IMG/VR virus record: IMGVR_UViG_2651869782_000036
Location: 1-12,726 of that record
Source of the DNA: a virus
Lineage: Duplodnaviria > Heunggongvirae > Uroviricota > Caudoviricetes
Direction: 5' to 3' (one strand)
DNA length: 12,726 nt
Each line of letters begins with the position of its first letter. The first letter of the stretch is position 1. A program made the translations under genes and the position numbers. A model generated the notes under the pieces. That model was not told the DNA's origin. It saw nothing but the letters and a program-made list of their open reading frames with translations, and did no database searches. Shown piece by piece: positions 1 to 12,726 of this stretch.

Positions 1-468
1 CCGTGGCCTTCCGCCACTCCGCCAACAGGCTGGCTGAAATGCAACGGTGCAGCATTTTCTGCTGAAGAATACCCGGAACTGGCAAAGGCTTATCCGACAA
101 ATAAATTGCCTGATTTACGTGGTGAGTTTATTCGTGGCTGGGATGACGGACGTGGTATGGATACGGGGAGGGCAATATTATCAGCTCAGGGCGATGCCAT
201 ACGTAATATCTATGGTGAGTTCAAGACTGTAAACACCGAAAATTATTCAATATGGGAAGTAGCAAGCTCGTTTAAGGGAGCAGTGGTGCCTTTGAGTCCC
301 TCTACAAACAATAGTTATTTCTCCTTAACCAGAAGTATGGTGACAGAAAGAGCAGACGGCGCTGTTTACCCAAAAGTGATAGGCCTTGATGCTTCAAGAA
401 TTGTTCCAACTGCAAACGAAAACCGTCCTCGTAACATTGCGTTTAATTACATCGTAAGGGCAGTATGA
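1..468 (+). CDS. Tail fibre C-terminal variable cassette 1 (5'-truncated by the window edge; presumably fused to the constant fibre N-terminus upstream, i.e. the expressed tip)
   Basis: Frame open from nt 1 (PWPSATPPTGWLKCNGAAF...LPDLRGEFIRGWDDGRG...) to TGA at 466-468. Tail-collar-like motif PDLRGxFxRGWDxGRG and conserved C-terminal RPRNIAFNYIVRAV. Confidence 0.8.
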   Translation, partial: PWPSATPPTGWLKCNGAAFSAEEYPELAKAYPTNKLPDLRGEFIRGWDDGRGMDTGRAILSAQGDAIRNIYGEFKTVNTENYSIWEVASSFKGAVVPLSPSTNNSYFSLTRSMVTERADGAVYPKVIGLDASRIVPTANENRPRNIAFNYIVRAV

Positions 469-487
469 AAACGTTGGTTTGGGGGAA
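462..487. other. Candidate Gin-family crossover site (gix/hix-like 26 bp: AGTATGAAAACG TT GGTTTGGGGGAA), + orientation
   Basis: Marks the exact left edge of the sequence shared by all cassette heads. Right half-site read as TTCCCCCAAACC matches the gix half-site TTCCTGTAAACC as I recall it in 9 of 12 positions; AAAAC/GTTTT dyad around a non-palindromic TT core. Overlaps the stop codon of cassette 1. Confidence 0.6.
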
Positions 488-937
488 GGCTCTGCGTTGC
501 CCGTTGGTGTACCTGTTCCGTGGCCCTCAGCCACACCGCCAGCAGGGTGGCTGAAATGTAACGGTGCAGCATTTTCTTCTAAAATGTACCCAAAACTGGC
601 AAAGGCCTACCCCACCAATAAATTACCAGACTTACGCGGTGAATTTATCCGTGGCTGGGATGATGGGCGCGGGGTGGATGCCGGAAGGGGCATCTTAAGC
701 ATGCAGGGGTGGTTAACAGGAAGTCATTATCATAATATTCGGTCATGGGATGCGTGGGATAACACGGTGTTGGTGCCAAATGACAAAGGAGGGGATAGTC
801 TGTTGTCGACAGATAACGCCGTCCGGCAAGGTGCAATTAACGGTAGATTTACCAGTCAATACAGAACGGAATCCTCAGAGGGGAATGAAACCCGCCCACG
901 CAATATTGCCTTCAATTATATTGTGAGAACCGCATAA
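479..937 (+). CDS. Tail fibre C-terminal variable cassette 2 (silent, promoter-less cassette; the TTG start in the ORF track is probably not used, the frame is open from 458 through the crossover site)
   Basis: 152-aa ORF with the same conserved head (GEGSALPVGVPVPWPSATPPAGWLKCNGAAF...PDLRGEFIRGWDDGRG) and tail (RPRNIAFNYIVRTA) but a different central region; stop TAA at 935-937 overlaps the tfa start. Confidence 0.8.
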   Translation: MGEGSALPVGVPVPWPSATPPAGWLKCNGAAFSSKMYPKLAKAYPTNKLPDLRGEFIRGWDDGRGVDAGRGILSMQGWLTGSHYHNIRSWDAWDNTVLVPNDKGGDSLLSTDNAVRQGAINGRFTSQYRTESSEGNETRPRNIAFNYIVRTA

Positions 938-1548
938 TGAATAACGCGATATTAAATGATGACCTTATTGCCGTACAGGCAGGAAACATCGTCGTTTATA
1001 ACTATGATGGTGAGACACGGGAATATATTTCCGAATCAACTGAATATCTTGCTGTGGGTGTCGGTATTCCGGCAAATTCCTGTTTAGATGCCCCGGGCGC
1101 ACATAAAGCGGGCTATGCTATCCGCCGTTCGGAGAATTTAAGCTCATGGGAGTATGCGCCAGACCATCGTGGTGAAACCGTCTATAGCACTGACACGGGA
1201 AACACCGAAGAAATCACGGCGCTGGGTGACTACCCGAAAAATACAACCACTATCGCCCCGTTAACACCATACGATAAATGGGATGGTGAAAAATGGGTGA
1301 CAGATACTGAGGCACAACATCGTGCCGCAGTAGAAGCGGCAGAAACCAAGCGCCAGTCACTGGCTGATGCGGCAATGGCTTCCATAAGTCTGATTCAGTT
1401 GAAGTTGCAGGCCGGGCGGAAGTTGACGCAGGCAGAAACCACCCGGCTTAATGCCGTGCTGGATTATATAGACGCGCTGAACGCAATGGATATAAACATG
1501 GCACCAGATATCAACTTGCCGGAAATACCACTGGCAGCAGCCAGTTGA
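937..1548 (+). CDS. Tail fibre assembly protein (Tfa; P2 G / Mu U family)
   Basis: 203 aa; the C-terminal region (EAAETKRQSLADAAMASISLIQ...LDYIDALNAMDINMAPDINLPEIP) has the character of the caudoviral tail-fibre-assembly domain; start ATG overlaps the cassette 2 stop (TAATG). Confidence 0.85.
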   Translation: MNNAILNDDLIAVQAGNIVVYNYDGETREYISESTEYLAVGVGIPANSCLDAPGAHKAGYAIRRSENLSSWEYAPDHRGETVYSTDTGNTEEITALGDYPKNTTTIAPLTPYDKWDGEKWVTDTEAQHRAAVEAAETKRQSLADAAMASISLIQLKLQAGRKLTQAETTRLNAVLDYIDALNAMDINMAPDINLPEIPLAAAS

Positions 1549-1554
1549 ATATAA

Positions 1555-2031
1555 CTAAGCCGCCCTCACGATATAGTTAAATGCAATATTGCGGGGGCGG
1601 GTTTCACTACCACCTGTGTTACCAATACTTCCTCGTGAATGAAGCGTTGGTGATGGAATCAAACTCCCTCCTGTATTTGTGGCATCAAGCCCCCTGCCTT
1701 GCGTATATGTTTTTTTGAAAATCGTGGCCAACTCCCATTCATCCTTTGTGTCATATCCATCGTTAGCTACAACAATATGGCGGTGTTTTTCCAACATCCC
1801 GTTTTGAATGCTCAATAAAGCGCGTGCCGCATCAATTCCTCGCCCATCATCCCAGCCACGGATAAATTCACCGCGTAAGTCTGGTAATTTATTGGTGGGG
1901 TAGGCCTTTGCCAGTTTTGGGTACTTTTCAGAAGAAAATGCTGCGCCGTTACATTTCAGCCATCCCGTTGGCGGCGTGGCTGAGGGCCATGGAACGGGCA
2001 CACCAACGGGCAGTGCAGAGCCTTCCCCCAA
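1555..2031 (-). CDS. Tail fibre C-terminal variable cassette 3 (inverted, silent)
   Basis: 158-aa minus-strand ORF with the conserved head and tail (…SETRPRNIAFNYIVRAA) and a unique centre; convergent with tfa. Confidence 0.8.
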   Translation of the reverse strand: MGEGSALPVGVPVPWPSATPPTGWLKCNGAAFSSEKYPKLAKAYPTNKLPDLRGEFIRGWDDGRGIDAARALLSIQNGMLEKHRHIVVANDGYDTKDEWELATIFKKTYTQGRGLDATNTGGSLIPSPTLHSRGSIGNTGGSETRPRNIAFNYIVRAA

Positions 2032-2048
2032 ACCAACGTTTTCATGCT
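2023..2048. other. Candidate Gin-family crossover site (inverted orientation; TTCCCCCAAACC AA CGTTTTCATGCT)
   Basis: Reverse complement differs from the site at 462-487 by one base; overlaps the cassette 4 stop codon and the cassette 3 head. Confidence 0.6.
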
Positions 2049-2470
2049 GCCCTTACGATGTAATTAAACGCAATATTACGAGGACGAATGGTTACATAAT
2101 TAACCCCATCACCTCGTGAAGGCCCTGCAAATGAAAAACGGGAAAAGCCTGGTTGGTTAGAAACAATTTGGTCATAGTTATTGATTGAATGACCAGACCC
2201 AATGTCGAAATTACCTCCGTAATGAGAAAAACTTGTACCATCCTGCCCTGAAAGCAGGGTACGTCCCGCATCAATCCCGCGCCCATCATCCCAGCCACGG
2301 ATAAATTCACCGCGTAAATCCGGTAATTTATTGGTGGGATAAGCCCTTGCCAGTCTGGGATACATTTCAGAAGAAAATGCTGCACCGTTACATTTCAGCC
2401 AGCCCGTTGGTGGTGTTGCTGAGGACCACGGAACGGGCACACCAACGGGCAGTGCAGAGCCTTCCCCCAA
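2042..2470 (-). CDS. Tail fibre C-terminal variable cassette 4 (inverted, silent)
   Basis: 142-aa minus-strand ORF, conserved head and tail (…IRPRNIAFNYIVRAA), Gly/Ser-rich unique centre. Confidence 0.8.
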   Translation of the reverse strand: MGEGSALPVGVPVPWSSATPPTGWLKCNGAAFSSEMYPRLARAYPTNKLPDLRGEFIRGWDDGRGIDAGRTLLSGQDGTSFSHYGGNFDIGSGHSINNYDQIVSNQPGFSRFSFAGPSRGDGVNYVTIRPRNIAFNYIVRAA

Positions 2471-2487
2471 ACCAACGTTTTCATGCT
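2462..2487. other. Candidate Gin-family crossover site (inverted orientation)
   Basis: Same 26-bp sequence as the site at 2023-2048 (TTCCCCCAAACCAACGTTTTCATGCT); overlaps the cassette 5 stop and the cassette 4 head. Confidence 0.6.
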
Positions 2488-2948
2488 GCCCTTACGATGT
2501 AATTAAACGCAATGTTATGGGGGCGTGTTTCAGATGCTGTGCGAACTGAGCGAGAGGCGTCGAATGTCCATACAGAAGCACCATATCCTTCAATGATCTC
2601 AGTTGGTTGTAAGCCTACTGATAATATAGAGTCAGTTTGACTAAATGGTCCTGAATTAAGCGCATCTTTAAAAAGCTGAGTACGCCCAAAAGTGCCAACT
2701 ATATTCTGAATAGCGTCAGACTGTGCAGACAGTAGGTTGCGCCCATTATCAACGCCCCGTCCGTCATCCCAGCCGCGAATAAATTCGCCCCGTAAATCCG
2801 GTAATTTATTGGTGGGGTAGGCCTTTGCCAGATTGGGGTACATTTCAGAAGAAAATGCTGCGCCGTTACATTTCAGCCACCCCGTTGGCAGCGTGGCTGA
2901 GGGCCATGGAACGGGCACGCCAACGGGCAACGCAGAGCCTTCCCCCAA
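2481..2948 (-). CDS. Tail fibre C-terminal variable cassette 5 (inverted, silent; the ORF-track extension to 3005 is probably fortuitous read-through into the invertase promoter region)
   Basis: Conserved head (GEGSALPVGVPVPWPSATLPTGWLKCNGAAF…) and tail (SETRPHNIAFNYIVRAA); the centre resembles cassette 1 (…SAQSDAIQNI…). Confidence 0.75.
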   Translation of the reverse strand: MGEGSALPVGVPVPWPSATLPTGWLKCNGAAFSSEMYPNLAKAYPTNKLPDLRGEFIRGWDDGRGVDNGRNLLSAQSDAIQNIVGTFGRTQLFKDALNSGPFSQTDSILSVGLQPTEIIEGYGASVWTFDASRSVRTASETRPHNIAFNYIVRAA

Positions 2949-2965
2949 ACCAACGTTTTCGTTTT
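2940..2965. other. Candidate Gin-family crossover site adjacent to the invertase gene (TTCCCCCAAACC AA CGTTTTCGTTTT)
   Basis: Same right half-site and core as the other three sites; the left arm differs because it is not preceded by a cassette 3' tail. Lies ~55 bp upstream of the invertase start, as for cix/gix next to cin/gin. Confidence 0.55.
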
Positions 2966-3019
2966 TATCCCTACCTATACCAACTCTGTATTTTTCACGA
3001 AACAAAGAGGATGTTTTTT

Positions 3020-3619
3020 ATGCAAATTGGCTATATTCGTGTGTCAACAAATGACCAGAACACGGATTTACAACGCAATGCACTGAACTGCGCAGGATGT
3101 GAACTGATTTTTGAAGATAAAATCAGCGGAACGAAATCAGCCAGACCGGGATTGAAAAAACTGCTCAGAACGCTATCAGAAGGAGATACGCTGGTTGTCT
3201 GGAAGCTGGACAGACTGGGCAGAAGTATGAAACACCTGATCACGCTTATTGAGGAATTGCGGGAAAAAGGTGTTAATTTCCGTAGTCTGACGGACAGCAT
3301 TGACACATCAACACCCATGGGGCGTTTCTTTTTTCACGTCATGGGGGCTTTAGCCGAAATGGAACGTGAATTAATTGTAGAGCGTACACTGGCCGGGCTG
3401 GCAGCAGCACGCGCACAAGGACGCATTGGCGGACGTCGCCCGAAGTTGACAAAAGAACAACACGAGCAAATAGCGAGGCTGATTAAAAACGGTCATGACA
3501 GGAAACAACTGGCGATCATTTACGACATCGGCATATCGACGATTTATCGTTATCACCCTGCAGGCGATATACAGGCTGAAGAAACAACCAGGCAGACTCA
3601 GGAAAATAAAAACCGCTAA
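3020..3619 (+). CDS. Site-specific DNA invertase, serine recombinase (Gin/Hin/Cin/Pin family)
   Basis: Start MQIGYIRVSTNDQNTDLQRNAL… is the hallmark invertase N-terminus with the catalytic Ser in GYIRVST; C-terminal HTH (GRRPKLTKEQHEQIARLIKNG…ISTIYRY). RBS AAAGAGG 9 nt upstream of ATG 3020. The ORF-track start at 2825 is rejected. Confidence 0.93.
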   Translation: MQIGYIRVSTNDQNTDLQRNALNCAGCELIFEDKISGTKSARPGLKKLLRTLSEGDTLVVWKLDRLGRSMKHLITLIEELREKGVNFRSLTDSIDTSTPMGRFFFHVMGALAEMERELIVERTLAGLAAARAQGRIGGRRPKLTKEQHEQIARLIKNGHDRKQLAIIYDIGISTIYRYHPAGDIQAEETTRQTQENKNR

Positions 3620-3641
3620 TCTGACCATTAGCGGTTTTGCG
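3608..3641. terminator. Bidirectional rho-independent terminator shared by the convergent invertase gene and tail operon
   Basis: Perfect 8-bp stem CCGCTAAT / ATTAGCGG (3613-3620, 3627-3634) with a 6-nt loop, flanked by an A-run on the left and TTTT on the right; the invertase stop codon lies inside the stem. Confidence 0.6.
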
Positions 3642-3645
3642 TTAA

Positions 3646-4134
3646 TCAAAACAGCCCTTTAACGGAGCTGGCCGCGCTGTTAAGGGATGATGTGACCTTA
3701 TCTTTGAAGCCGGACAGCATATCACTGAACGATGAGGATTGCAGGCGCTCCCGCAAATCCTCATCACAGCGTCCAAGAGTCAGTGAAAATTCTATCTTTT
3801 TCGCCTTACCGTAGCGATCAAACTCGGAACGGGTCGTATTCGTTTCAGTCAGTACATACATGCCGTAAATCTGCCCGACACCATCAATCAGAGGCCAGGG
3901 GCGTCCTGTATATGCCTGCGTGGTCAGCAACGAAAGCGACACTTCGCCACCTGTAATTTCAGGATAAAGCACGCCGGAAAGCACGATGCGATCATCACCT
4001 GCGCCGATATACTGCCAGCTTGCTGAACGATTAACGCGTTCATTTTTCACATGCCGCCAGCTTTTGTTTTGCTGTAACTGCTGATGCGGCAATGTGCGCA
4101 GCTCAAAAACAAACATGCCGTAGATCATCATCAT
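3646..4134 (-). CDS. U: Phage tail protein U (P2 gpU family)
   Basis: MMMIYGMFVFELRTLP…SASWQY…GGEVSLSLLTTQAYTGRPWPLIDG… resembles P2 gpU as I recall it; size and position after T fit. Start chosen at the second ATG (better SD spacing; the GAGGAG SD overlaps the T stop); ATG 4140 is the alternative. Confidence 0.85.
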   Translation of the reverse strand: MMMIYGMFVFELRTLPHQQLQQNKSWRHVKNERVNRSASWQYIGAGDDRIVLSGVLYPEITGGEVSLSLLTTQAYTGRPWPLIDGVGQIYGMYVLTETNTTRSEFDRYGKAKKIEFSLTLGRCDEDLRERLQSSSFSDMLSGFKDKVTSSLNSAASSVKGLF

Positions 4135-4146
4135 GGCCATGACTCC

Positions 4147-6963
4147 TCAATCTTTATCGTAAAAACTGCCACGTCCGGCACGGTCGCGTCGTTCCAATTC
4201 TGCCCTGACCATTTCACCGACCAGTTTCGCCAGTTCGCGGGGATTCTGCGTAACAACGTTATGCAGATGAACATGAATTTCACCGCCAAATCCGGAGACA
4301 ACAGGCTCCCGGTTACGGGAAGTTGCAGGAACTGATGCCACTGGCGATCGTATGGCCTCCGCCACCGGGCGGGAGCTGGCCGCAACAACAGGGACCAGCG
4401 CCGGAGGCAGAGGAGTCGGGACCACGGGTGTGATGTTGATTGCGGAAGCAGGCTTACTGACCTGCGCAATCTTCCGCTCCTGCCACTCCCCACGAACAGC
4501 AAGTGCGCGGGGCAGGTTCTTAAAGACAATATCGCCGGGGCCAATGCGTTTTTTCGTCTCATCAACCAGCTTACCTGTGTTATCAGCAATTTTGCTGAGT
4601 CTGCGTAGCGTACCGGTATTGCTGTCTGTGAGCGGTTTGTTGTCTTTGGGTTTATCACCTCCGGTGCCATTGCCATTTTCCACAGGCTTCGGCGGATTGA
4701 TTTTCGCCAGGTCCCCCTGAAGCAAGGCAACCTTGTCCTGAAGAATGGCCGCACGCTGTGCGTCTTCGATTTTCTTGCGCGCCCTTTCCGCTTCATCCGG
4801 AAGGACGCCAAGTTTTTCAAGTATCCACGCCAGCGTATCCAGTAGCATTTTTGCAGGCGTCAGAACAAGTTGTAACGCACCGCCAAGAACGTTACCGAAT
4901 ATCTCGCCAGCACTGGTACATTTTTCCAGCGTTTCCTTGCTGGACTCCATCGGTGACAGCAGCGATTTAAACCAGTTAAACACCTGGCTGATCCCGCTTC
5001 CGATTGCGTCAAAAACAGGACCAAACCGTTCAAAGGTTTCGCGCAACGGGGCCAGCCTTTCCATAATCCCGCTGAACACCCCGGCAAAAAATGCCCTGAT
5101 GGGATCCCAGTATTTCCAGATAAGAACGGCAGCTCCGGCAAGTGCAGCCACGATAAGACTAACCGGACTGAACAGCGCCCCGATAGCGCCTCCCAGTAAA
5201 GAAACGGAACCCGTCACCATTCCCCATAGTGCTGGCAGGACCCTGACAGCATTCATTGATCCGGTCAGGAGAGAAAAACCAAGACGCAGTTTTGCCAGCG
5301 GACCAGCAAGCATACCAATAGCCAGCGACAACGAGCCAACCGTTGCAGTCATTGCCAGCAACGCACCGCCTGCTATCAGTAGCTGGCGCGTCAGTGCCGG
5401 ATGGGCCTGCGCCAGCGCCGTCACCCTTGATACCACCCGCGTGAGCCACTGCGTGACAGAACGCAGCGGACCGTCAATCAGATCTGCAATGCGGATGCGC
5501 AACCCTTCCCATGCACTGCCGAGTGATTTCAGATCGCCGTCAAGGTTGTTGGCCATAACCTTTGCTGTGCGTTCAGCCTCACCGCGCGCGCCTTCAAGTT
5601 CTTTTCTCAGTTTGGGTAAGGAACCGTCACCCACTGCATCAACGAGCGCCATAAACGATGTGAAAGCCTCTTCTCCGGCAATGTCCTTAAAGAACGATAC
5701 CCGGTCAACTTCCCCGTATTTGCGGGTGGCTTTATAAAGGTCGGCCAGCACATCCTCCATCGGGCGCATTTTACCCCCGGCATCCGAGACGGACACGCCC
5801 AGCTCTTTCAGAGCTTCTGCCGCCGCCTTTGGCGGTGATGCCAGACGAGCCAGGCTGGCACGCATTGCCGTCCCGGCATCACTCCCTCTGATGCCCATAT
5901 TCGCCAGCACGCCAGCCATCGCTGCGGCCTGCTCCAGCGATATTCCCAGCTTACCCGCCACCGGACCTGCATATTTCATGGTTTCGCCCAGTGCGCGAAG
6001 GTCAGTGTTGGTACGGGTAAACGCTGCGGTGAGTGTGTCACCGACCCGGTCCATCTGGTCAGCAGAAAGGCCGAACTGCGTCAGGATATTTGAGCCAATA
6101 TCTGCCGTCTCGCCGAGATCCATACCGCCAGCCGTTGCCATGCTCAGCACTCCGGGAAGCGCAGCCTGAATGGCCTGCGGTGTGAAGCCTGCCATTGCAA
6201 GAAATGCCTGCCCACTGGCGGCATCGCCTGCAGTGAACTGCGTTTCAGAGCCAAGTTTTAACGCCTGTTCACGCAGCGCCTTAAACTGCGGGCTGTTCTG
6301 GTCGATTCGCGTCAGTGCCTGAACGCGGGACATCTCTTTCCCGAACCCGATCGCAGGCTGCAAAAAACGCCCGGCAGCATAGCTGCCAGCCGCTGCCGCA
6401 CCAATTGCCAGCGCACCACCTGTTTTCAGTTTTCCCGCGGTTTCCTGCGCGCGCGAATACCGCTCACGCGCACGTGTTACACGCGCAAGCGCCTGCCGTT
6501 CGCGTTCAAGCTGGTTGTTGTACTGTTCGGTGCGTCTGATGGCCTGCTGGATGGTGTTATCGCTGCCTGTCAGGGAAATGCCGTGGCGTTTCAGCTCTCC
6601 GCCAAGCTCCCGCATTTTCTGAATTTCCCGTGTGCGCGATTCATTCAGGCGTTCAAGCCGGGTGCTTAACTGCTGCATCAGCTTTTGTTGTTTTTCGCTG
6701 AGCACTGTACCCGTGCGTTGTAACTGATTAAGGGCGTTAAGCTGGCGTCGTGCTTTCAATATGCCAGCATCCGCTTTACCGACAGCGTCACGGGCGCGCT
6801 CAAATGAACGCGCCTGACGCTCGAGATTTTTGATCGCCCCCTGCGTTCGCTGGATGGAGTCACCAAACTGCCCCATCAGGCGGCGGGCGTTTTCGGCAGG
6901 CCGGGTCAGCCTGTCAACGGCGCTGAAAGCGACCCGGATGTCAAGAGTCTTCATTGTCTGCAT
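4147..6963 (-). CDS. T: Tail tape measure protein (P2 gpT family)
   Basis: ~940-aa Ala/Gly/Leu-rich ORF with a coiled-coil-like N-terminal half and hydrophobic Gly-rich segments, located between the E/E' chaperone and U. Start uncertain (ATG 6963 or 6954; the ORF track uses GTG 6990). Confidence 0.85.
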   Translation of the reverse strand: MQTMKTLDIRVAFSAVDRLTRPAENARRLMGQFGDSIQRTQGAIKNLERQARSFERARDAVGKADAGILKARRQLNALNQLQRTGTVLSEKQQKLMQQLSTRLERLNESRTREIQKMRELGGELKRHGISLTGSDNTIQQAIRRTEQYNNQLERERQALARVTRARERYSRAQETAGKLKTGGALAIGAAAAGSYAAGRFLQPAIGFGKEMSRVQALTRIDQNSPQFKALREQALKLGSETQFTAGDAASGQAFLAMAGFTPQAIQAALPGVLSMATAGGMDLGETADIGSNILTQFGLSADQMDRVGDTLTAAFTRTNTDLRALGETMKYAGPVAGKLGISLEQAAAMAGVLANMGIRGSDAGTAMRASLARLASPPKAAAEALKELGVSVSDAGGKMRPMEDVLADLYKATRKYGEVDRVSFFKDIAGEEAFTSFMALVDAVGDGSLPKLRKELEGARGEAERTAKVMANNLDGDLKSLGSAWEGLRIRIADLIDGPLRSVTQWLTRVVSRVTALAQAHPALTRQLLIAGGALLAMTATVGSLSLAIGMLAGPLAKLRLGFSLLTGSMNAVRVLPALWGMVTGSVSLLGGAIGALFSPVSLIVAALAGAAVLIWKYWDPIRAFFAGVFSGIMERLAPLRETFERFGPVFDAIGSGISQVFNWFKSLLSPMESSKETLEKCTSAGEIFGNVLGGALQLVLTPAKMLLDTLAWILEKLGVLPDEAERARKKIEDAQRAAILQDKVALLQGDLAKINPPKPVENGNGTGGDKPKDNKPLTDSNTGTLRRLSKIADNTGKLVDETKKRIGPGDIVFKNLPRALAVRGEWQERKIAQVSKPASAINITPVVPTPLPPALVPVVAASSRPVAEAIRSPVASVPATSRNREPVVSGFGGEIHVHLHNVVTQNPRELAKLVGEMVRAELERRDRAGRGSFYDKD

Positions 6964-7162
6964 TCCCGCTGCGAAGTGCCGCCCGCTCACGCCAGCTAAC
7001 CACTTCGCCGGGCGTCATCATGAAGATTTCGGCGGGCGACCAGTTAAAAATGGCGGCGATATCTGCCACCAGATCTTCGATGTGCTCAAAGCACACCAGG
7101 GTGATTACGCTGCCGTCTCCTGCACGCTCTTCGCGCCAGAGTCTGGCTCGCTCATAAAATTT
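6941..7162 (-). CDS. E' extension: -1 frame ORF giving the E+E' tail assembly chaperone by programmed frameshift
   Basis: An ORF in the -1 frame relative to E, with no independent SD, overlaps the 3' part of E and the start of T; a canonical slippery heptamer A AAT TTT sits in the E frame inside the overlap. Confidence 0.5.
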   Translation of the reverse strand, partial: KFYERARLWREERAGDGSVITLVCFEHIEDLVADIAAIFNWSPAEIFMMTPGEVVSWRERAALRSGNADNEDS

Positions 7163-7479
7163 ACAGCCACAGCGCACAACTGAATAAAATCGCGTGACGA
7201 CATTTTTTTAATCATCACTTCATCCAGTCGTGGCGAGGTCACGCGAGGCAACAGCGTGAACATGGTATCCGCTTTCAGATTCAGCACATCAGACAGCGAC
7301 AGACCACGCAGGGATCCAGCCTGTTCAATAGCCCCGGTGATCTCCACATACGTGATTTTTTCGCCACCACGCTCAATTGGTCGGGTCAGTTTTACGCCAC
7401 GTTCGACAGCCATATCCTCACCTGCCGTCACATCATCCGCCACGGTGTTATTCCGGGTTTCAGTATCGATGTCTTTCAT
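7105..7479 (-). CDS. E: Tail assembly chaperone E (P2 gpE family)
   Basis: 124-aa ORF between tube and tape measure genes with a strong SD (AAAGGAG, 7 nt spacing); the position and the overlapping -1 ORF match the conserved chaperone pair (lambda G/GT, P2 E/E+E'). Confidence 0.7.
   Translation of the reverse strand: MKDIDTETRNNTVADDVTAGEDMAVERGVKLTRPIERGGEKITYVEITGAIEQAGSLRGLSLSDVLNLKADTMFTLLPRVTSPRLDEVMIKKMSSRDFIQLCAVAVNFMSEPDSGAKSVQETAA
7156..7162 (-). other. Candidate -1 programmed frameshift slippery heptamer A AAT TTT (read on the minus strand)
   Basis: Zero-frame codons GTA AAT TTT ATG (…AVNFM…); a -1 re-pairing gives AAA TTT TAT GAG… = KFYE…, exactly the E' reading frame. Confidence 0.4.
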
Positions 7480-7534
7480 CAGTTGTCTCCTTTTCAGTCA
7501 GAGGCGACGCACTGCGCCGCCTGCATATTACTTA

Positions 7535-8047
7535 TCAGCCAAGCCCGAGCGCGGAACGGATGCGATCGGGCACAATGTCCTTGCCGTCCTTCCGGTAAAT
7601 GAAGTTCAGCAGGTCAATCTCCCACAACGGGCGATCGTTAACACTCAGCTTGTAGTAGGTGTTTTTAATGGCGTAAGTGTGTGATGTGGCTTCGCCCTGT
7701 TTGGCTTCCCCCATATCAATTTCCGTCACACGTCCGCGCATTTCGACTTCATACAGGTCGCTTTCTGCATCGGTGTAGTATTCACCCGCAAAACGCAGCA
7801 GCGTGCCGTCAATCGTGCCGCCATACTTAAGGAACAGCTCACGAACTGCGCCCCCCATGACAAAGCTCGCATCAAGCGCGGAGTCGTCCAGACCGAGATC
7901 AATACTTACCGCACCCATCATGCCACCACCCCGGTAGCTGTCGGTTTTGCGCGTCAGCTTAGGCAGAGTGACGGACGTCACCTTACCCACTTCGTTTTCA
8001 CCATCCACAAACAGCGTAAAAAAGCGAAGATGTTTTGGTACAGCCAT
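7535..8047 (-). CDS. FII: Tail tube protein (P2 gpFII family)
   Basis: 170 aa; MAVPKHLRFFTLFVDGENEVGKVTSVTLPKLTRKTDSYRGGGMMGAVSIDLGLDD… resembles P2 FII as I recall it (…VTLPKLTRK…YRGAGM…DLGLDD…). Start ATG overlaps the FI stop (TGATG); SD GGGAGG. Confidence 0.88.
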   Translation of the reverse strand: MAVPKHLRFFTLFVDGENEVGKVTSVTLPKLTRKTDSYRGGGMMGAVSIDLGLDDSALDASFVMGGAVRELFLKYGGTIDGTLLRFAGEYYTDAESDLYEVEMRGRVTEIDMGEAKQGEATSHTYAIKNTYYKLSVNDRPLWEIDLLNFIYRKDGKDIVPDRIRSALGLG

Positions 8048-9231
8048 CAGGCACCTCCCAGCACCGCAAATGCGGGACCAAAGAATTCATCAGTAAACGA
8101 CTGGTAAAGCTCCATGTCTTCCAGCGGGGGAACAGGCGTATATTTGTAGCGAATACGCACGCGCCCCTGACGTAAATTCGTGGTGCCGTTATCCACCACG
8201 TCATACCAGCACGACGCCCCAATCAGTTTCCCGGCAGTAACCAGTGAATCCAGTTTTGCCCTGATGGCACTGATAACATCTTTCACGTTCGCAGGCGTCA
8301 GTGGACTGTCGATGGTTTCAAACTGCGCTTCCGCAATTGAATCAGCCAGCACCTGTGCGGTTCGGGTATACACCTCAAAGATGTAGGCGTTCGTTTCCGG
8401 TGTGCGGTTGCCCCAGAAGCGGAACCCGTTGCGACGAATAATGGTCGTGATTTCTTTGTTGTTGAGGCTGTTGGCATCACTGTCTTCGGCCTGCAACGAC
8501 CAGAACACATGCCTAGACATCCCCAGCACATTTTTAACCGGAACGTTGGACAGCGATTTGTGCCAGCCCTGCTCATGGTCAATGTACGCACGAAGGCCGC
8601 ACGCATAGGCAGGCGCGGGGAACGTTTCGTTTTTGCCACTTTTCGGGTTGTAGGCGATGAAGTCCGGCCATAAGAGCATCACCTCACGTTCGTTGAATTT
8701 CTGGCGATAGGTAATCGCCTCAGCCATCGTGTTACAGCCGTGACATGAGGCATACACAAACGCGCGCAGTTTACCTGCAATCACGCACAGGGATTTTGTT
8801 ACCGCCTCCGTGTCCAGCTCCGGCGCGGCCAGAATACGCGGACGGTATCCGATGCTTTCATCCTGCTCTGCAACAAGCAGCGCATACATCCCCGTATAGC
8901 TGCCGTCAGATTCAGAACCACCGATAACCAGTTGATCCTGCGTTTTTCCGTCTTCTTCTTTGTGTTCAGCCACGCGAACGACGATCACCTTTGTGCTCAC
9001 CTGGTCTGCGATGGCCTTAAGCGCACGATAAAGCGTCCCCGTTGTTCCGCATTTTCCCAGCACGTCATTGACGCGGGTCAGCAGTGTGGGCTTGTTCAGC
9101 GGGAACAGCTCCGCATCCGCATCATCCGCCGTTGCCACGATACCGATAACACTGGAATCAACATCATTAATCGCTGTTACCAGGTCGGTACTTTCCGTAA
9201 CACGGGCACCATGAAAACGAGTTTCACTCAT
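8047..9231 (-). CDS. FI: Contractile tail sheath protein (P2 gpFI family)
   Basis: 394 aa; motifs shared with P2 FI as I recall it (ADDADAELFPLNKP, GFRFWGNRT, YTRTAQV, YTPVPPLE); SD AAGGGG upstream of ATG 9231. Confidence 0.9.
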   Translation of the reverse strand: MSETRFHGARVTESTDLVTAINDVDSSVIGIVATADDADAELFPLNKPTLLTRVNDVLGKCGTTGTLYRALKAIADQVSTKVIVVRVAEHKEEDGKTQDQLVIGGSESDGSYTGMYALLVAEQDESIGYRPRILAAPELDTEAVTKSLCVIAGKLRAFVYASCHGCNTMAEAITYRQKFNEREVMLLWPDFIAYNPKSGKNETFPAPAYACGLRAYIDHEQGWHKSLSNVPVKNVLGMSRHVFWSLQAEDSDANSLNNKEITTIIRRNGFRFWGNRTPETNAYIFEVYTRTAQVLADSIAEAQFETIDSPLTPANVKDVISAIRAKLDSLVTAGKLIGASCWYDVVDNGTTNLRQGRVRIRYKYTPVPPLEDMELYQSFTDEFFGPAFAVLGGA

Positions 9232-9388
9232 AGCTTCAGCCCCTTGTATCCGTTAAATGATTCAGCAACAATCATCACCCACCACGCGCGTAATCTCACC
9301 CCTGCGCTATTCTCCCGCCACGGCGACAACAAAAAGCAGTAACCCACTCCGCACGCACATGCGACCATGCCGCACAGGGAGGGAACAG

Positions 9389-10498
9389 ATGACCGACACC
9401 ACCATGCAATTGCTCAGTCAGGGCACAGACCCCGTGAAAATGCCGGATTTTGATATTCTCGCGGAGGGTAAAACGCTGTCCGGCGTGGCAGAGCGCCTGA
9501 TGAGCCTGTCGCTGACCGACAACCGGGGATTTGAGGCGGACCAGCTCACCATCACGCTGGATGATGCCGATGGCCAGTTGCAGCTACCGCCACGGGGCGC
9601 GCGTCTGACGGTTCTCATTGGCTGGAAAGGGGAACCGCTGACAGAAAAAGGCACTTACATTGTTGATGAAATCGCTCACGAAGGACCGCCGGACAGGCTG
9701 ACTGTTTCAGCCAGAAGCGCAGATTTTCGGGATGAATTTAACGTTAAACGTGAGGTGTCCTGGCATGATGTGACCGTTGAGCGTGTGGTATCCGCCATCG
9801 CTCATCGGTACGGTCTGAAACCGCAAATCAGCGAAATGCTGATGGATATCGAAATCGACCACGCCGACCAGACCGAAGAAAGCGACATGTCCTTTCTTAC
9901 GCGCATGGCGGAAATGCTGGGCGCAATCACCACGGTAAAAAGCGGCAATCTGTTATTCATCATGCCAGGTGGTGGCGTGAACGCACAGGGCCAGCCGTTG
10001 CCCTCGTTCGCCATTACACGCAGCAGCGGCGATCGCCATCAGTTCCGTATTGCTGACCGCGAGGCGTATACGGGGGTACGCGCCTACTGGCTTGATCTTA
10101 ATTACGGGAAAAAGAAAAAAGTCAGCGTGAAACGCCGTAAACCGCCAAAACCCAAAAAGGAGAAAAGCAGCAGCCGTGAAGGTGATTATATGGAAGGCGC
10201 GGAAGGCAATGTGTTTGTGTTACGCAAGACTTATCAGAACGAGCAGGCAGCAAGACGCGCAGCGGCGGCAAAGTGGCAGCAACTACAACGCGGAGCCGCA
10301 TCATTCTCCATCACACTGGCTCGTGGACGCGCAGAACTCTACCCCGAAATGCATGGCACGGTGACAGGCTTCAAAAGTGACATCGACAATCAGGACTGGA
10401 TTATTGCAAAAGCCGAGCACACCATTGATAACAGCGGCTTTACCACGCAGCTTGAGCTTGAAGCAAAAATCCCGGAATGGATAGCAGAAACAGAGTGA
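9389..10498 (+). CDS. D: Phage late control / tail protein D (P2 gpD family)
   Basis: ~369 aa from ATG 9389, preceded by SD GGGAGGGAA; contains LSLSLTDNRGFEADQLTITLDDADG, which matches the gpD family as I recall it. The ORF-track start at 9257 is rejected as having no SD. Adjacent to ogr as in P2. Confidence 0.75.
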   Translation: MTDTTMQLLSQGTDPVKMPDFDILAEGKTLSGVAERLMSLSLTDNRGFEADQLTITLDDADGQLQLPPRGARLTVLIGWKGEPLTEKGTYIVDEIAHEGPPDRLTVSARSADFRDEFNVKREVSWHDVTVERVVSAIAHRYGLKPQISEMLMDIEIDHADQTEESDMSFLTRMAEMLGAITTVKSGNLLFIMPGGGVNAQGQPLPSFAITRSSGDRHQFRIADREAYTGVRAYWLDLNYGKKKKVSVKRRKPPKPKKEKSSSREGDYMEGAEGNVFVLRKTYQNEQAARRAAAAKWQQLQRGAASFSITLARGRAELYPEMHGTVTGFKSDIDNQDWIIAKAEHTIDNSGFTTQLELEAKIPEWIAETE

Positions 10499-10540
10499 GC
10501 AACTTAGAATAGCGGCAGCACCACGTTAAGGGAGGTCGCT

Positions 10541-10801
10541 ATGTTCCGTTGTCCGCTTTGTGGCGCATCTGCCCGTATCCGCACCAGTCGTTCGGAAAAT
10601 GATTCAAACACCGTACGGAAAAAATATTACCAGTGTAACAACCTGGAATGCGGCATAAGTTTCTCAACACTGGAAGCTTTCCATAAATTCACATCGAAAC
10701 ACGCCCCCGGCGTTCACTCTTCAGAAGGTATCCCGTGGCATGAGTTGCCAGCTTCACACAGGGGAAACAATCAGATGAGTTTGCCTTTATCTCAGAATTA
10801 A
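10541..10801 (+). CDS. ogr: Ogr/Delta-family zinc-finger late transcription activator
   Basis: 86 aa; MFRCPLCG…(22 aa)…CNNLEC gives the C-X2-C-X22-C-X4-C spacing typical of Ogr; N-terminus resembles P2 Ogr (MFHCPLC…). SD TAAGGGAGG 5 nt upstream. Confidence 0.8.
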   Translation: MFRCPLCGASARIRTSRSENDSNTVRKKYYQCNNLECGISFSTLEAFHKFTSKHAPGVHSSEGIPWHELPASHRGNNQMSLPLSQN

Positions 10802-10810
10802 CAGGCAGAA

Positions 10811-10839
10811 TTGCCGGAGTAACAAAAAAGCGATAGATT
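10811..10839 (+). promoter_or_regulatory. Putative sigma70 promoter of the hok-like transcript (-35 TTGCCG, 17-bp spacer, -10 TAGATT)
   Basis: Hexamers are weak matches to consensus (4/6 each), with 17-bp spacing, placed so that a transcript would begin near 10846, at the 5' element that is complementary to the 3' end of the transcript. Sequence-only guess. Confidence 0.3.
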
Positions 10840-10992
10840 ACGCGCGGGTGCCTTTCGGCTGATGGTCGGAGGGAATACCCGAAGGCCGGATGTGGAAAGG
10901 CCCCGGAAAACATCTCTGTTTAACCGAGGCCCTAACATATCTACCTTAAGCAAGTGATAGGTTAGCGCCTCTCCAACAAAGGAGCAAGCGCT

Positions 10993-11133
10993 ATGTCGCA
11001 AAAATCGCTTACGGCCATCACGTTCTGCGTGACGGTAATCCTCATAATCTGGATGCTGCACGGTTCGCTGTGTGAAATACGGATGAGCTTCTGGGGAGCG
11101 GAGTTTGCGGCGTTCTTACAGTGTAAGCAGTAA
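10993..11133 (+). CDS. Hok/Gef-family type I toxin-like small membrane protein (46 aa)
   Basis: MSQKSLTAITFCVTVILIIWMLHGSLCEIRMSFWGAEFAAFLQCKQ: N-terminal hydrophobic helix followed by SLCEIR and E-x-AAF-x-x-C/Y, as in Hok (…[23 protein letters not shown]…). SD AAGGAG 8 nt upstream of the ATG. Below the 60-aa cutoff of the ORF track. Confidence 0.65.
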   Translation: MSQKSLTAITFCVTVILIIWMLHGSLCEIRMSFWGAEFAAFLQCKQ

Positions 11134-11220
11134 GGAAACCGCGACGGGGGAGCAATCCCCCGTCAATCGGTTGCCAGGGTAAGGTCGATAAGGCACCCTA
11201 TCTCACAGACATGAACAACA

Positions 11221-11253
11221 AACCCGCAGCGTAAAAACTGCGGGTTTTCTTTT
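11221..11253 (+). terminator. Rho-independent terminator (downstream of the hok-like gene)
   Basis: Stem CCCGCAG / CTGCGGG with an 8-nt loop, followed by TTTTCTTTTT. Confidence 0.65.
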
Positions 11254-11284
11254 TGGTTCCCTCACTCATGAGGACACCAAAAAC

Positions 11285-11317
11285 AAAGCCCATAGCATAG
11301 AATGCTGTGGGCTTTTT
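11285..11317. terminator. Hairpin with flanking T-runs on both strands (bidirectional terminator candidate)
   Basis: AAAGCCCATAGCA (loop tagaa) TGCTGTGGGCTTT then TTTTT on +; on the minus strand the same hairpin is followed by TTTGTTTTTGG. Confidence 0.5.
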
Positions 11318-11392
11318 GCATTCAAAGATGGACGTTATATGGACACTTAAAAATAAAATCCATTTATTTTCAAATAATTAAACTTCTACTTA

Positions 11393-11413
11393 AAGCGCCC
11401 GCAGGCGCTTTTT
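11393..11413. terminator. GC hairpin plus T-run immediately downstream of serS (terminator candidate, better formed for + strand transcription)
   Basis: AAGCGCC (loop CGCA) GGCGCTT followed by TTT on +; on the serS (minus) side the trailing run is only TTTAAG, so the assignment to serS is uncertain. Confidence 0.45.
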
Positions 11414-11433
11414 AGATTCAGAAAAATTGGGTA

Positions 11434-12726
<1,293 letters not shown>

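Follow-up and report, generated by a model that had tools for sequence, protein, structure and literature searches.

Does the small hok-like gene downstream of ogr in a stretch of Caudoviricetes DNA specify an mRNA that closes on itself end to end, as the hok mRNA of plasmid R1 does, or is the complementarity of its predicted ends an accident of sequence? The stretch, IMG/VR record IMGVR_UViG_2651869782_000036, positions 1 to 12,726, is hereafter called the window. An earlier note on this DNA had pointed out a 9-mer at the predicted 5′ end of the hok transcript whose reverse complement lies shortly upstream of a terminator. In R1, the full-length hok mRNA is closed by pairing of tac with fbi and is inert until trimming at the 3′ end removes fbi (PMC9841398). 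Using RNA folding, shuffled sequences, and comparison with related loci, we find that the paired 9-mers probably represent a fold-back helix of this kind, and we judge it likely that positions 10811-11257 hold a complete hok/sok-type type I toxin-antitoxin module. The locus is a new copy of a known kind of hok, in a little-studied, uncharacterised subfamily without mok, and it leaves the established picture of hok/sok regulation unchanged.

Complementarity between the predicted mRNA ends

Read directly, GGGTGCCTT (10846-10854) and AAGGCACCC (11190-11198) are exact reverse complements, as claimed. The complementarity extends beyond the 9-mer to a 15-bp helix between 10846-10860 (the tac-like element) and 11183-11198 (the fbi-like element), with U11189 bulged, two G-U pairs, and a duplex energy of −25.7 kcal/mol. 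Folding of 10846-11253, which the earlier note had proposed as a check, paired the two 9-mers in both the minimum free energy (MFE) structure and the ensemble. The MFE structure (−171.9 kcal/mol, z −7.7) contains the entire 15-bp helix, and the nine core pairs have ensemble probabilities (P) of 0.83-1.0. Forcing 11183-11198 to remain unpaired costs 12.5 kcal/mol. When the 9-mers were mutated in silico, mean P fell from 0.98 in the wild type to 0 in either single mutant and stood at 0.885 in the double compensatory mutant.

How readily such a match arises by chance was estimated with shuffled sequences. At least one 9-mer inverted pair with its arms at least 50 nt apart is present in 19% of dinucleotide shuffles of the 443-nt stretch 10811-11253 (mean 0.26), so that the few percent previously allowed for coincidence was too low for the bare 9-mer. 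This frequency is what speaks for a chance match without structural meaning. Against it, the observed duplex energy was reached by only 7 of 2000 shuffles, in which the first 18 nt were set against a shuffled 90-nt window of the 3′ untranslated region (3′UTR). In every intact relative, the match also coincides exactly with the predicted start of the transcript on one side and with the homologous 3′UTR position on the other, and its pairs covary across subfamilies, as described below. Taken together, the position at 10846, the folding, the specificity in shuffles, and the comparison make the 9-mer match meaningful in spite of the shuffle rate. On the sequences compared, the comparative evidence excludes chance, an explanation to which we give next to no credence.

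Conservation and covariation of the end helix

The tac-like element is invariant in 13 aligned sequences of the window's subfamily, and RNAalifold, run on these 13 sequences with no structure supplied beforehand, predicts the end helix independently. At all 14 loci for which the first 18 nt were matched with the 3′UTR, the best duplex starts at nt 1. Duplex energies at these loci range from −17 to −31 kcal/mol, even where the toxin is only ~50% identical. The 3′ partner lies 45-59 nt past the stop codon in 12 of them, and 34 and 24 nt past it in the other two, whose called duplex includes a large loop. The Rfam model RF01794 matches the window at 10846-11003 over its full length (model positions 1-157; 43.9 bits, E 3e-7). 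In each of the 16 hok loci that it matches, among them R1-type, pnd, and srnB loci and a Vibrio plasmid locus, the match begins at the first position of the model. The model is named "sok antitoxin", yet it matches the hok-sense strand over 157 nt and describes the hok leader, its tac/ucb stem included.

Across subfamilies the two ends differ in sequence, with 5′ end and 3′ partner being GGGUGCC and GGCACCC in the window type, GGCGCUU and AAGCGCC in R1, GGGCGC and GCGCCC in pnd, GGGAGCUU and AAGCUCCC in Vibrio, and GGGUGUUUG and CAGACACCC in srnB. In a mini-alignment of 10 sequences, four of the nine pairs are changed on both sides, and 86.7% of cells are paired, compared with 33-57% when the partner is slid. 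Combining each 5′ end with its own 3′ end gave the best of 120 permutations. Position 4 is U:A, C:G, or A:U depending on the subfamily. This position is bulged in the Rfam tac/ucb stem and yet forms three Watson-Crick types with the 3′ element, which indicates the end pairing specifically. Within the window's subfamily, variation is found in the distal helix, where G-U alternates with G-C at 10858 and U-G with U-A at 10860, and at position 16, where Stx phages have G:C and IncI1 plasmids A:U. The end helix is thus well supported by folding and covariation, and the proposal of a tac/fbi-type 5′-3′ pairing upstream of the terminator is borne out by the folding, the Rfam start, RNAalifold, and covariation between subfamilies.

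Signals that define the predicted transcript

The candidate promoter noted directly after the ogr stop (TTGCCG, 17 bp, TAGATT) is present in the sequence, and its hexamers are kept at a fixed spacing in relatives from unrelated contexts. There, the −35 box reads TTGCCC, TTGCGC, TTGCGG, or TTGAAA and the −10 box TAAATT, TACATT, or TAGAAT, at a distance of 17-18 nt; the spacer sequence itself diverges. Position 10846 lies 7 nt past the −10 box. Downstream, the gene's own terminator was likewise recovered, by scan and by fold, as a terminator-like hairpin at 11220-11247 followed by TCTTTTTGG. From these signals, the hok mRNA is predicted to be ~408 nt long, beginning at G10846 and ending at the terminator.

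Predicted refolding of the leader in the absence of mok

The 5′ leader, ~147 nt long, offers the 5′ end two predicted alternative partners (Table 1). Without the 3′ element, 10846-10860 refolds on the nearer one, 10864-10880, in a hairpin that alone has −17.9 kcal/mol. For the second, the ucb-like box, the Rfam consensus pairs positions 1-3 and 5-8, all of which are canonical in the window. A different leader hairpin had been suggested in the earlier note; its arms, GCCTTTCGG (10850-10858) and CCGAAGGC (10879-10886), are present in the sequence, but they pair in no optimal predicted fold.

Removal of the fbi-like element was examined by folding nine loci of the subfamily, namely the window and eight relatives. 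In the full-length form, tac/fbi pairing is predicted in all nine. Upon removal of the element, the MFE structure switches to an R1-like tac/ucb pairing (nt 1-3 and 5-11 with 50-59) in six of the nine, and in five of these six the GAGGC/GCCUC target hairpin forms while the SD (Shine–Dalgarno) hairpin of ~11 bp shrinks to 2-3 bp. The 5′ ends of the window and of an IncI1 copy fold on 10864-10880 instead of on ucb. As a control, the same procedure was applied to R1 and returned the tac/fbi helix; with fbi taken away, it gave the published pairs G4:C72, C5:G71, and U6:A70 (PMC9841398). By analogy with R1 such an activation step may exist in the window copy as well, where it is uncertain.

The Sok-target hairpin, in which GAGGC pairs with the dcb-like GCCUC, appears in the RNAalifold consensus (columns 83-93 with 119-129), and none of its pairs is lost in any of the 13 sequences. 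Within the subfamily, the ucb-like, GAGG, and dcb-like boxes do not vary. In the Rfam alignment, GAGGC occupies the place of the R1 mok SD. No mok frame was found: in the window, and in 8 of the 13 subfamily relatives tested, no frame opened by ATG, GTG, or TTG extends as far as the hok SD, and the sporadic frames elsewhere are not conserved. Applied to R1 as a control, the search script located mok at nt 116, with 70 codons, which agrees with the published start-codon mutations T117 and G118 (PMC9841398). The position of the R1 mok AUG is AUA in the window (10937-10939), followed six codons on by a stop at 10955-10957. Judged by its sequence, the window is not a three-gene hok/mok/sok module of the R1 type. 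A leader open reading frame (ORF) of 31 aa (10862-10957) was considered as a substitute for mok and rejected; it has no Pfam hit, ends 22 nt before the SD, and is interrupted in relatives by frame-shifting indels at ~10906.

Several results weigh against reading the locus as an R1-type module closed by its ends. The RF01794 score of the window is below the gathering score of 59 bits, and all subfamily members score 39-50 bits. The register of the mini-alignment was set by duplex prediction, which favours pairing, and the seven core pairs, which never change inside the subfamily, are uninformative there. Both transcript ends are predictions, and a strict consensus scan called no hok promoter, so that the promoter assignment rests on conservation. 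The fbi-like element is separated from the terminator by a single-stranded spacer of 21 nt, whereas the two are nearly adjacent in R1. The tac/ucb fold of the window lies 13.5-17.5 kcal/mol above the MFE structure with the local 5′ hairpin. The mean unpaired probability of the SD does not change between the full-length and trimmed RNA of the window; this metric is also static in relatives and barely moves even in the R1 control, for which reason we regard it as insensitive and dropped it as a readout of activation. Lastly, because there is no mok frame, the translational coupling of R1 cannot apply.

A candidate Sok RNA and a conserved 3′UTR hairpin

Opposite the leader, the minus strand carries a candidate Sok promoter consisting of a −35 box, TTGCTC (complement of 10982-10987), a 17-nt spacer, and a −10 box, TAACCT (complement of 10959-10964). 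Comparison with locus L021 places this −10 box as the TATCCT of R1 is placed relative to the GAGGC...GCCUC hairpin. The −35 box of relatives is TTGCTC, or TTGACT in those with a 1-nt insertion. Strict consensus scans made no call for this promoter either. The candidate Sok RNA would fold with −22.9 kcal/mol (z −3.1) and end in a stem, GGCCUCGG/CCGGGGCC, followed by UUU at ~10893. The element AGGTTAGCGCCTC is invariant in 12 of 13 relatives and has one substitution in the remaining one (L018). On these features, a Sok-like RNA may be expressed from the locus.

Between the stop codon and the fbi-like element lies a GC-rich hairpin in which four pairs show compensatory changes among relatives (RNAalifold columns 302-325). 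The corresponding hairpin of R1 protects the trimmed hok mRNA, and its mutation abolishes toxicity (PMC9841398). By analogy, the hairpin of the window is likely the protective 3′ hairpin of a trimmed mRNA.

Table 1. Positions of the hok module and its neighbours in the window
Feature	Position	Strand	Basis or remark
gpD-like ORF	9257-10498		right arm of P2-like prophage
ogr	10541-10801		Pfam Ogr_Delta match; stop codon 10799-10801
Predicted sigma-70 promoter of hok mRNA	10811-10839	+	−35 TTGCCG 10811-10816; 17-nt spacer; −10 TAGATT 10834-10839
tac-like element, predicted 5′ end of hok mRNA	10846-10860 (core 9-mer 10846-10854)	+	promoter spacing, Rfam, MFE
Local alternative partner of 5′ end (5′ hairpin)	10864-10880	+	analogous to R1 metastable hairpin
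Predicted Sok-like antisense gene	10893-10987	−	read from sequence; conserved; start ~10951, end ~10893, ~59 nt
ucb-like box AAAGGCCCC, second alternative 5′ partner	10895-10903	+	Rfam consensus; tac/ucb stem with U10849 bulged
Sok-target hairpin region	10926-10971	+	GAGGC 10926-10930 with dcb-like GCCUC 10967-10971; inner CUAAC with GUUAG
hok SD AAGGAG	10979-10984	+	predicted folds; hairpin 10963-10992 with anti-SD CUCC 10971-10974, GCGC stems
hok-like toxin gene	10993-11133	+	46 aa, MSQKSLTAITFCVTVILIIWMLHGSLCEIRMSFWGAEFAAFLQCKQ; ORF and Pfam match
GC-rich 3′UTR hairpin	11142-11165	+	folds; GACGGGGGA GCAA UCCCCCGUC
fbi-like element, 3′ partner of 5′ end	11183-11198 (core 9-mer 11190-11198)	+	folds, RNAalifold, covariation
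Intrinsic terminator of hok mRNA	11220-11257	+	scan and fold; stem 11220-11247, then UCUUUUUGG
serS	from 11434	−	bacterial neighbour of prophage end

A possible route from closed to translated mRNA

In R1, once fbi is gone, tac pairs with ucb and the leader opens; the trimmed RNA then meets one of two fates, Sok binding followed by RNase III cleavage, or translation (PMC9841398). Following this example, a constitutive promoter would yield the full-length mRNA of the window, in which the first 15 nt would lie on the fbi-like element and close the molecule end to end. In this form, the ucb-like box would be held by the GAGG segment and the hok SD locked in the anti-SD hairpin. Slow exonucleolytic trimming from the 3′ end may remove the terminator and the fbi-like element and halt at the GC hairpin. 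The freed 5′ end would then refold locally, on 10864-10880 or on the ucb-like box, and the leader would rearrange into the Sok-target hairpin. The trimmed RNA would be bound by the short-lived Sok-like RNA and destroyed or, with Sok gone, translated into a membrane toxin. For the window, both the trimming and the silencing of the full-length mRNA are projected from R1.

The dcb-like GCCUC overlaps the anti-SD, and the final step therefore probably acts on hok's own SD. An extension of this idea, which we regard as possible but doubtful, is a mok-independent switch in which the trimming-driven change from tac/fbi to tac/ucb pairing would open the ribosome binding site of hok itself, and Sok would block that site by releasing the anti-SD again or by triggering cleavage rather than through an arrest of mok translation. 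On this hypothesis, mok could be absent because the switch acts directly on the hok SD, and this widespread phage and plasmid subfamily would use a form of the classic hok switch that is simpler in structure and independent of mok.

Alternatively, the end helix could be real and serve mainly the stability of the mRNA, guarding the 5′ end against RNase E and the 3′ end against exonucleases, with translation controlled only by the SD hairpin and Sok. Such a role would agree with the predicted pairing of the SD and AUG, which is the same in full-length and trimmed window RNA, with the disfavoured tac/ucb refold of the window copy, and with the fact that, when mok is missing, it is not obvious how the 5′ domain would signal to the start of hok; moreover, the closed full-length form of R1 is also a stable reservoir (PMC9841398). 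We nevertheless consider a pure stability role unlikely, because loss of the fbi-like element in five relatives brings the MFE structure to tac/ucb and dismantles the long SD hairpin, and because stability alone does not require the ucb-like, GAGG, and dcb-like boxes to be invariant.

The toxin gene and its relatives

The 46-aa product matches Pfam PF01848 (HOK_GEF) over residues 7-44 with 30.1 bits (cutoff 22; E 3.7e-7). It reached none of the NCBIfam equivalogs, the best being HokA with 35.8 bits against a cutoff of 89, and therefore belongs to no named subfamily; hokA is also the closest named Hok protein, at 43% identity. A tblastn search with the 46-aa toxin reached only its own subfamily. 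In the RNAalifold prediction, the region of the hok start codon, 10993-11002 (AUGUCGCAAA), also forms a helix over a long range with 11104-11113 (UUUGCGGCGU) inside the coding region. This helix is kept in 13 of 13 relatives with only U-G to C-G changes, and it is inseparable from the coding constraint (MSQK/MPQK and FAAF).

A search of genomes with a narrow Hok alignment gave six loci, three of them on non-enterobacterial contigs: a Planococcaceae metagenome-assembled genome, Vagococcus sp., and Moraxella osloensis (L015, L016, and L019). All three contigs carry E. coli-type hok loci, with 100% identity for the hok of L015 and L016 and a hokA-type gene adjoining cspA in L019, and are very likely contaminating enterobacterial DNA in the assemblies.

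Relatives of the window locus with 74-97% DNA identity are found in other P2-like phages, in Stx2 lambdoid phages just downstream of lom, in IncI1 and IncF plasmids, and at other chromosomal sites. Across these unrelated contexts, the −35 box is where the shared homology sets in. In lambdoid Stx phages and some plasmids it extends to 11198 and no further, and in several P2-like phages it stops 8-10 nt beyond that point. The terminator is common to only some relatives, P88 and Chuche among them, and others have different terminators. As the homology starts at the promoter and stops at or just past the fbi-like element, the mobile unit appears to run from the one to the other.

These relatives bear on a further explanation, namely that the locus is an inactive relic whose complementarity was inherited from an active ancestor and is now idle. 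Most hok loci of E. coli K-12 are inactive, and many chromosomal hok loci are disrupted. In L019 (Moraxella), L020 (E. coli), and L029, which are hokA-type loci together with a hok from an IncHI2 plasmid, one and the same end of the insertion sequence IS150 (AGGTCTGACTCCAATTGAATATC) stands in place of the first part of the leader, a known pattern of IS-inactivated hok loci; the three were left out of the comparison for this reason. A further locus (L013) has a broken ORF and no 3′ element, another (L005) has a frameshifted ORF, and the window copy is predicted to lack the tac/ucb switch. A relic is still very unlikely in our view. The ORF of the window is intact, and identical or nearly so in hundreds of genomes; relatives with a toxin of ~50% identity have retained the promoter hexamers, the SD, the Sok promoter, the GC hairpin, and the fbi-like element; and the helices show compensatory and G-U to G-C changes.

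The module at the end of a P2-like prophage

Homology to the genomes of phages and bacteria makes it likely that a P2-like (P88/Xuanwuvirus-like) prophage of E. coli carries the hok module as cargo at its right end, between ogr and an attachment site adjoining serS. Many E. coli genomes match the hok stretch over its full length at the corresponding site, with 95-99% identity, and 1006 of 5426 complete E. coli genomes hold 80% or more of it; strain UTI89 has a copy there that is 97% identical. Identity to P88, Chuche, and further Xuanwuvirus/P2-like phages is 95-97%. Homology to P88 and Chuche stops at 11254-11261, directly after the U-tract of the hok terminator, which places the prophage/attR boundary against or across that terminator. 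On the bacterial side of the boundary are a second terminator-like hairpin (11277-11316) and the serS terminator (~11397-11416). RefSeq annotation of the locus in E. coli consists only of a "Hok/Gef family protein" adjoining ogr. Hok is common in prophages (bioRxiv 10.1101/2025.08.07.668861). Literature searches for hok in P2-like phages returned nothing specific, and we found no paper on the RNA features of the window's hok subfamily.

Strain STEC1012 (L032, CP061270.1 1197000-1202000) has three tandem hok modules adjoining serS, with a period of 467-473 nt, at the site that the prophage end occupies in the window. The copy nearest serS shares its bacterial flank with window positions 11308-11433. 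CP061270.1 is a 1.2-Mb record labelled as a plasmid, yet it carries rarA and serS. One possibility is that the tandem modules are a hok islet left by repeated integrations.

Implications for annotation

Behind the stock label "Hok/Gef family protein" at the end of a P2-like prophage common in E. coli lies what would be a full RNA-controlled killer module with predictable transcript ends. In Stx2 phages, the relative of the window locus is a second hok locus that has gone unannotated. Calling window-type ORFs "MokW-like host killing" is misleading, as this is a PHROG family name rather than a statement of orthology. The subfamily also provides a natural test of whether the hok end-pairing switch works without mok.

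Comparison with known hok/sok systems

R1 hok/sok (parB) and its F/IncF relatives share with the window the order of their parts: a promoter, a leader of ~150-175 nt, an antisense gene (predicted in the window) opposite the leader, a Hok/Gef toxin, a GC hairpin in the 3′UTR, and an fbi element just before the terminator. In R1, the 5′ end is paired with fbi as long as the RNA is full-length and moves to ucb once fbi is lost (PMC9841398); the first pairing is predicted in all nine subfamily loci folded and the second in six of them. The window differs from R1 in its toxin, which is only ~28% identical, in the overlap of its tac-like element with the arm of the next hairpin, in the lack of mok, in the spacer between the fbi-like element and terminator, and in a tac/ucb pairing that is not the predicted optimum.

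The Stx2 phage hok downstream of lom (933W, VT2-Sakai/Sp5) and the IncI1 hok belong to the same subfamily as the window. They are 81-85% identical to the window in DNA from the promoter to the fbi-like element and 76-89% in the toxin, and have identical first 18 nt at the 5′ end. Their 3′ partner is different, being AUGGCACCC plus a perfect UCAGCCGA distal stem, or GUGGCACCC, and their terminators and genomic context also differ. The lom-adjacent locus (L003, 933W 45241-46115; AP000363.1 44532-44906) is unannotated or "hypothetical" in 933W and VT2-Sakai. Stx2 phages accordingly carry two hok-family loci, this one and hokW/mokW near the right end.

The second of these, hokW-sokW of Sakai prophage 5, is toxic, is neutralised by an antisense RNA, and aids lysis after induction (PMC8621323). 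It resembles the window in being a prophage-borne hok/sok type I system and differs in encoding a 51-aa protein that is 44% identical to R1 Hok (AP000363.1 57504-57656, annotated mokW). We considered the Stx-phage relative of the window as hokW-sokW and rejected this assignment, as tblastn with R1 Hok places hokW at a different locus of the same phages. By sequence, then, the window locus is not hokW but another locus of another subfamily, and the hokW-sokW study serves as an analogy only. For hokA of the E. coli chromosome, the HokA score of the window toxin falls far under the cutoff, and IS150 sits in the leader of the hokA-type loci retrieved, which makes their RNA features not comparable.

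Long-distance pairing of mRNA ends, removed by 3′ trimming, is used by aapA mRNAs as well. In the aapA/IsoA systems of Helicobacter pylori, translation is controlled by a series of mRNA structures, first transient and then final, in which the SD of the toxin itself is hidden, and there is no leader ORF (PMC9841398). The toxin, RNA sequence, and host are unrelated to those of the window, and the likeness is one of analogy only.

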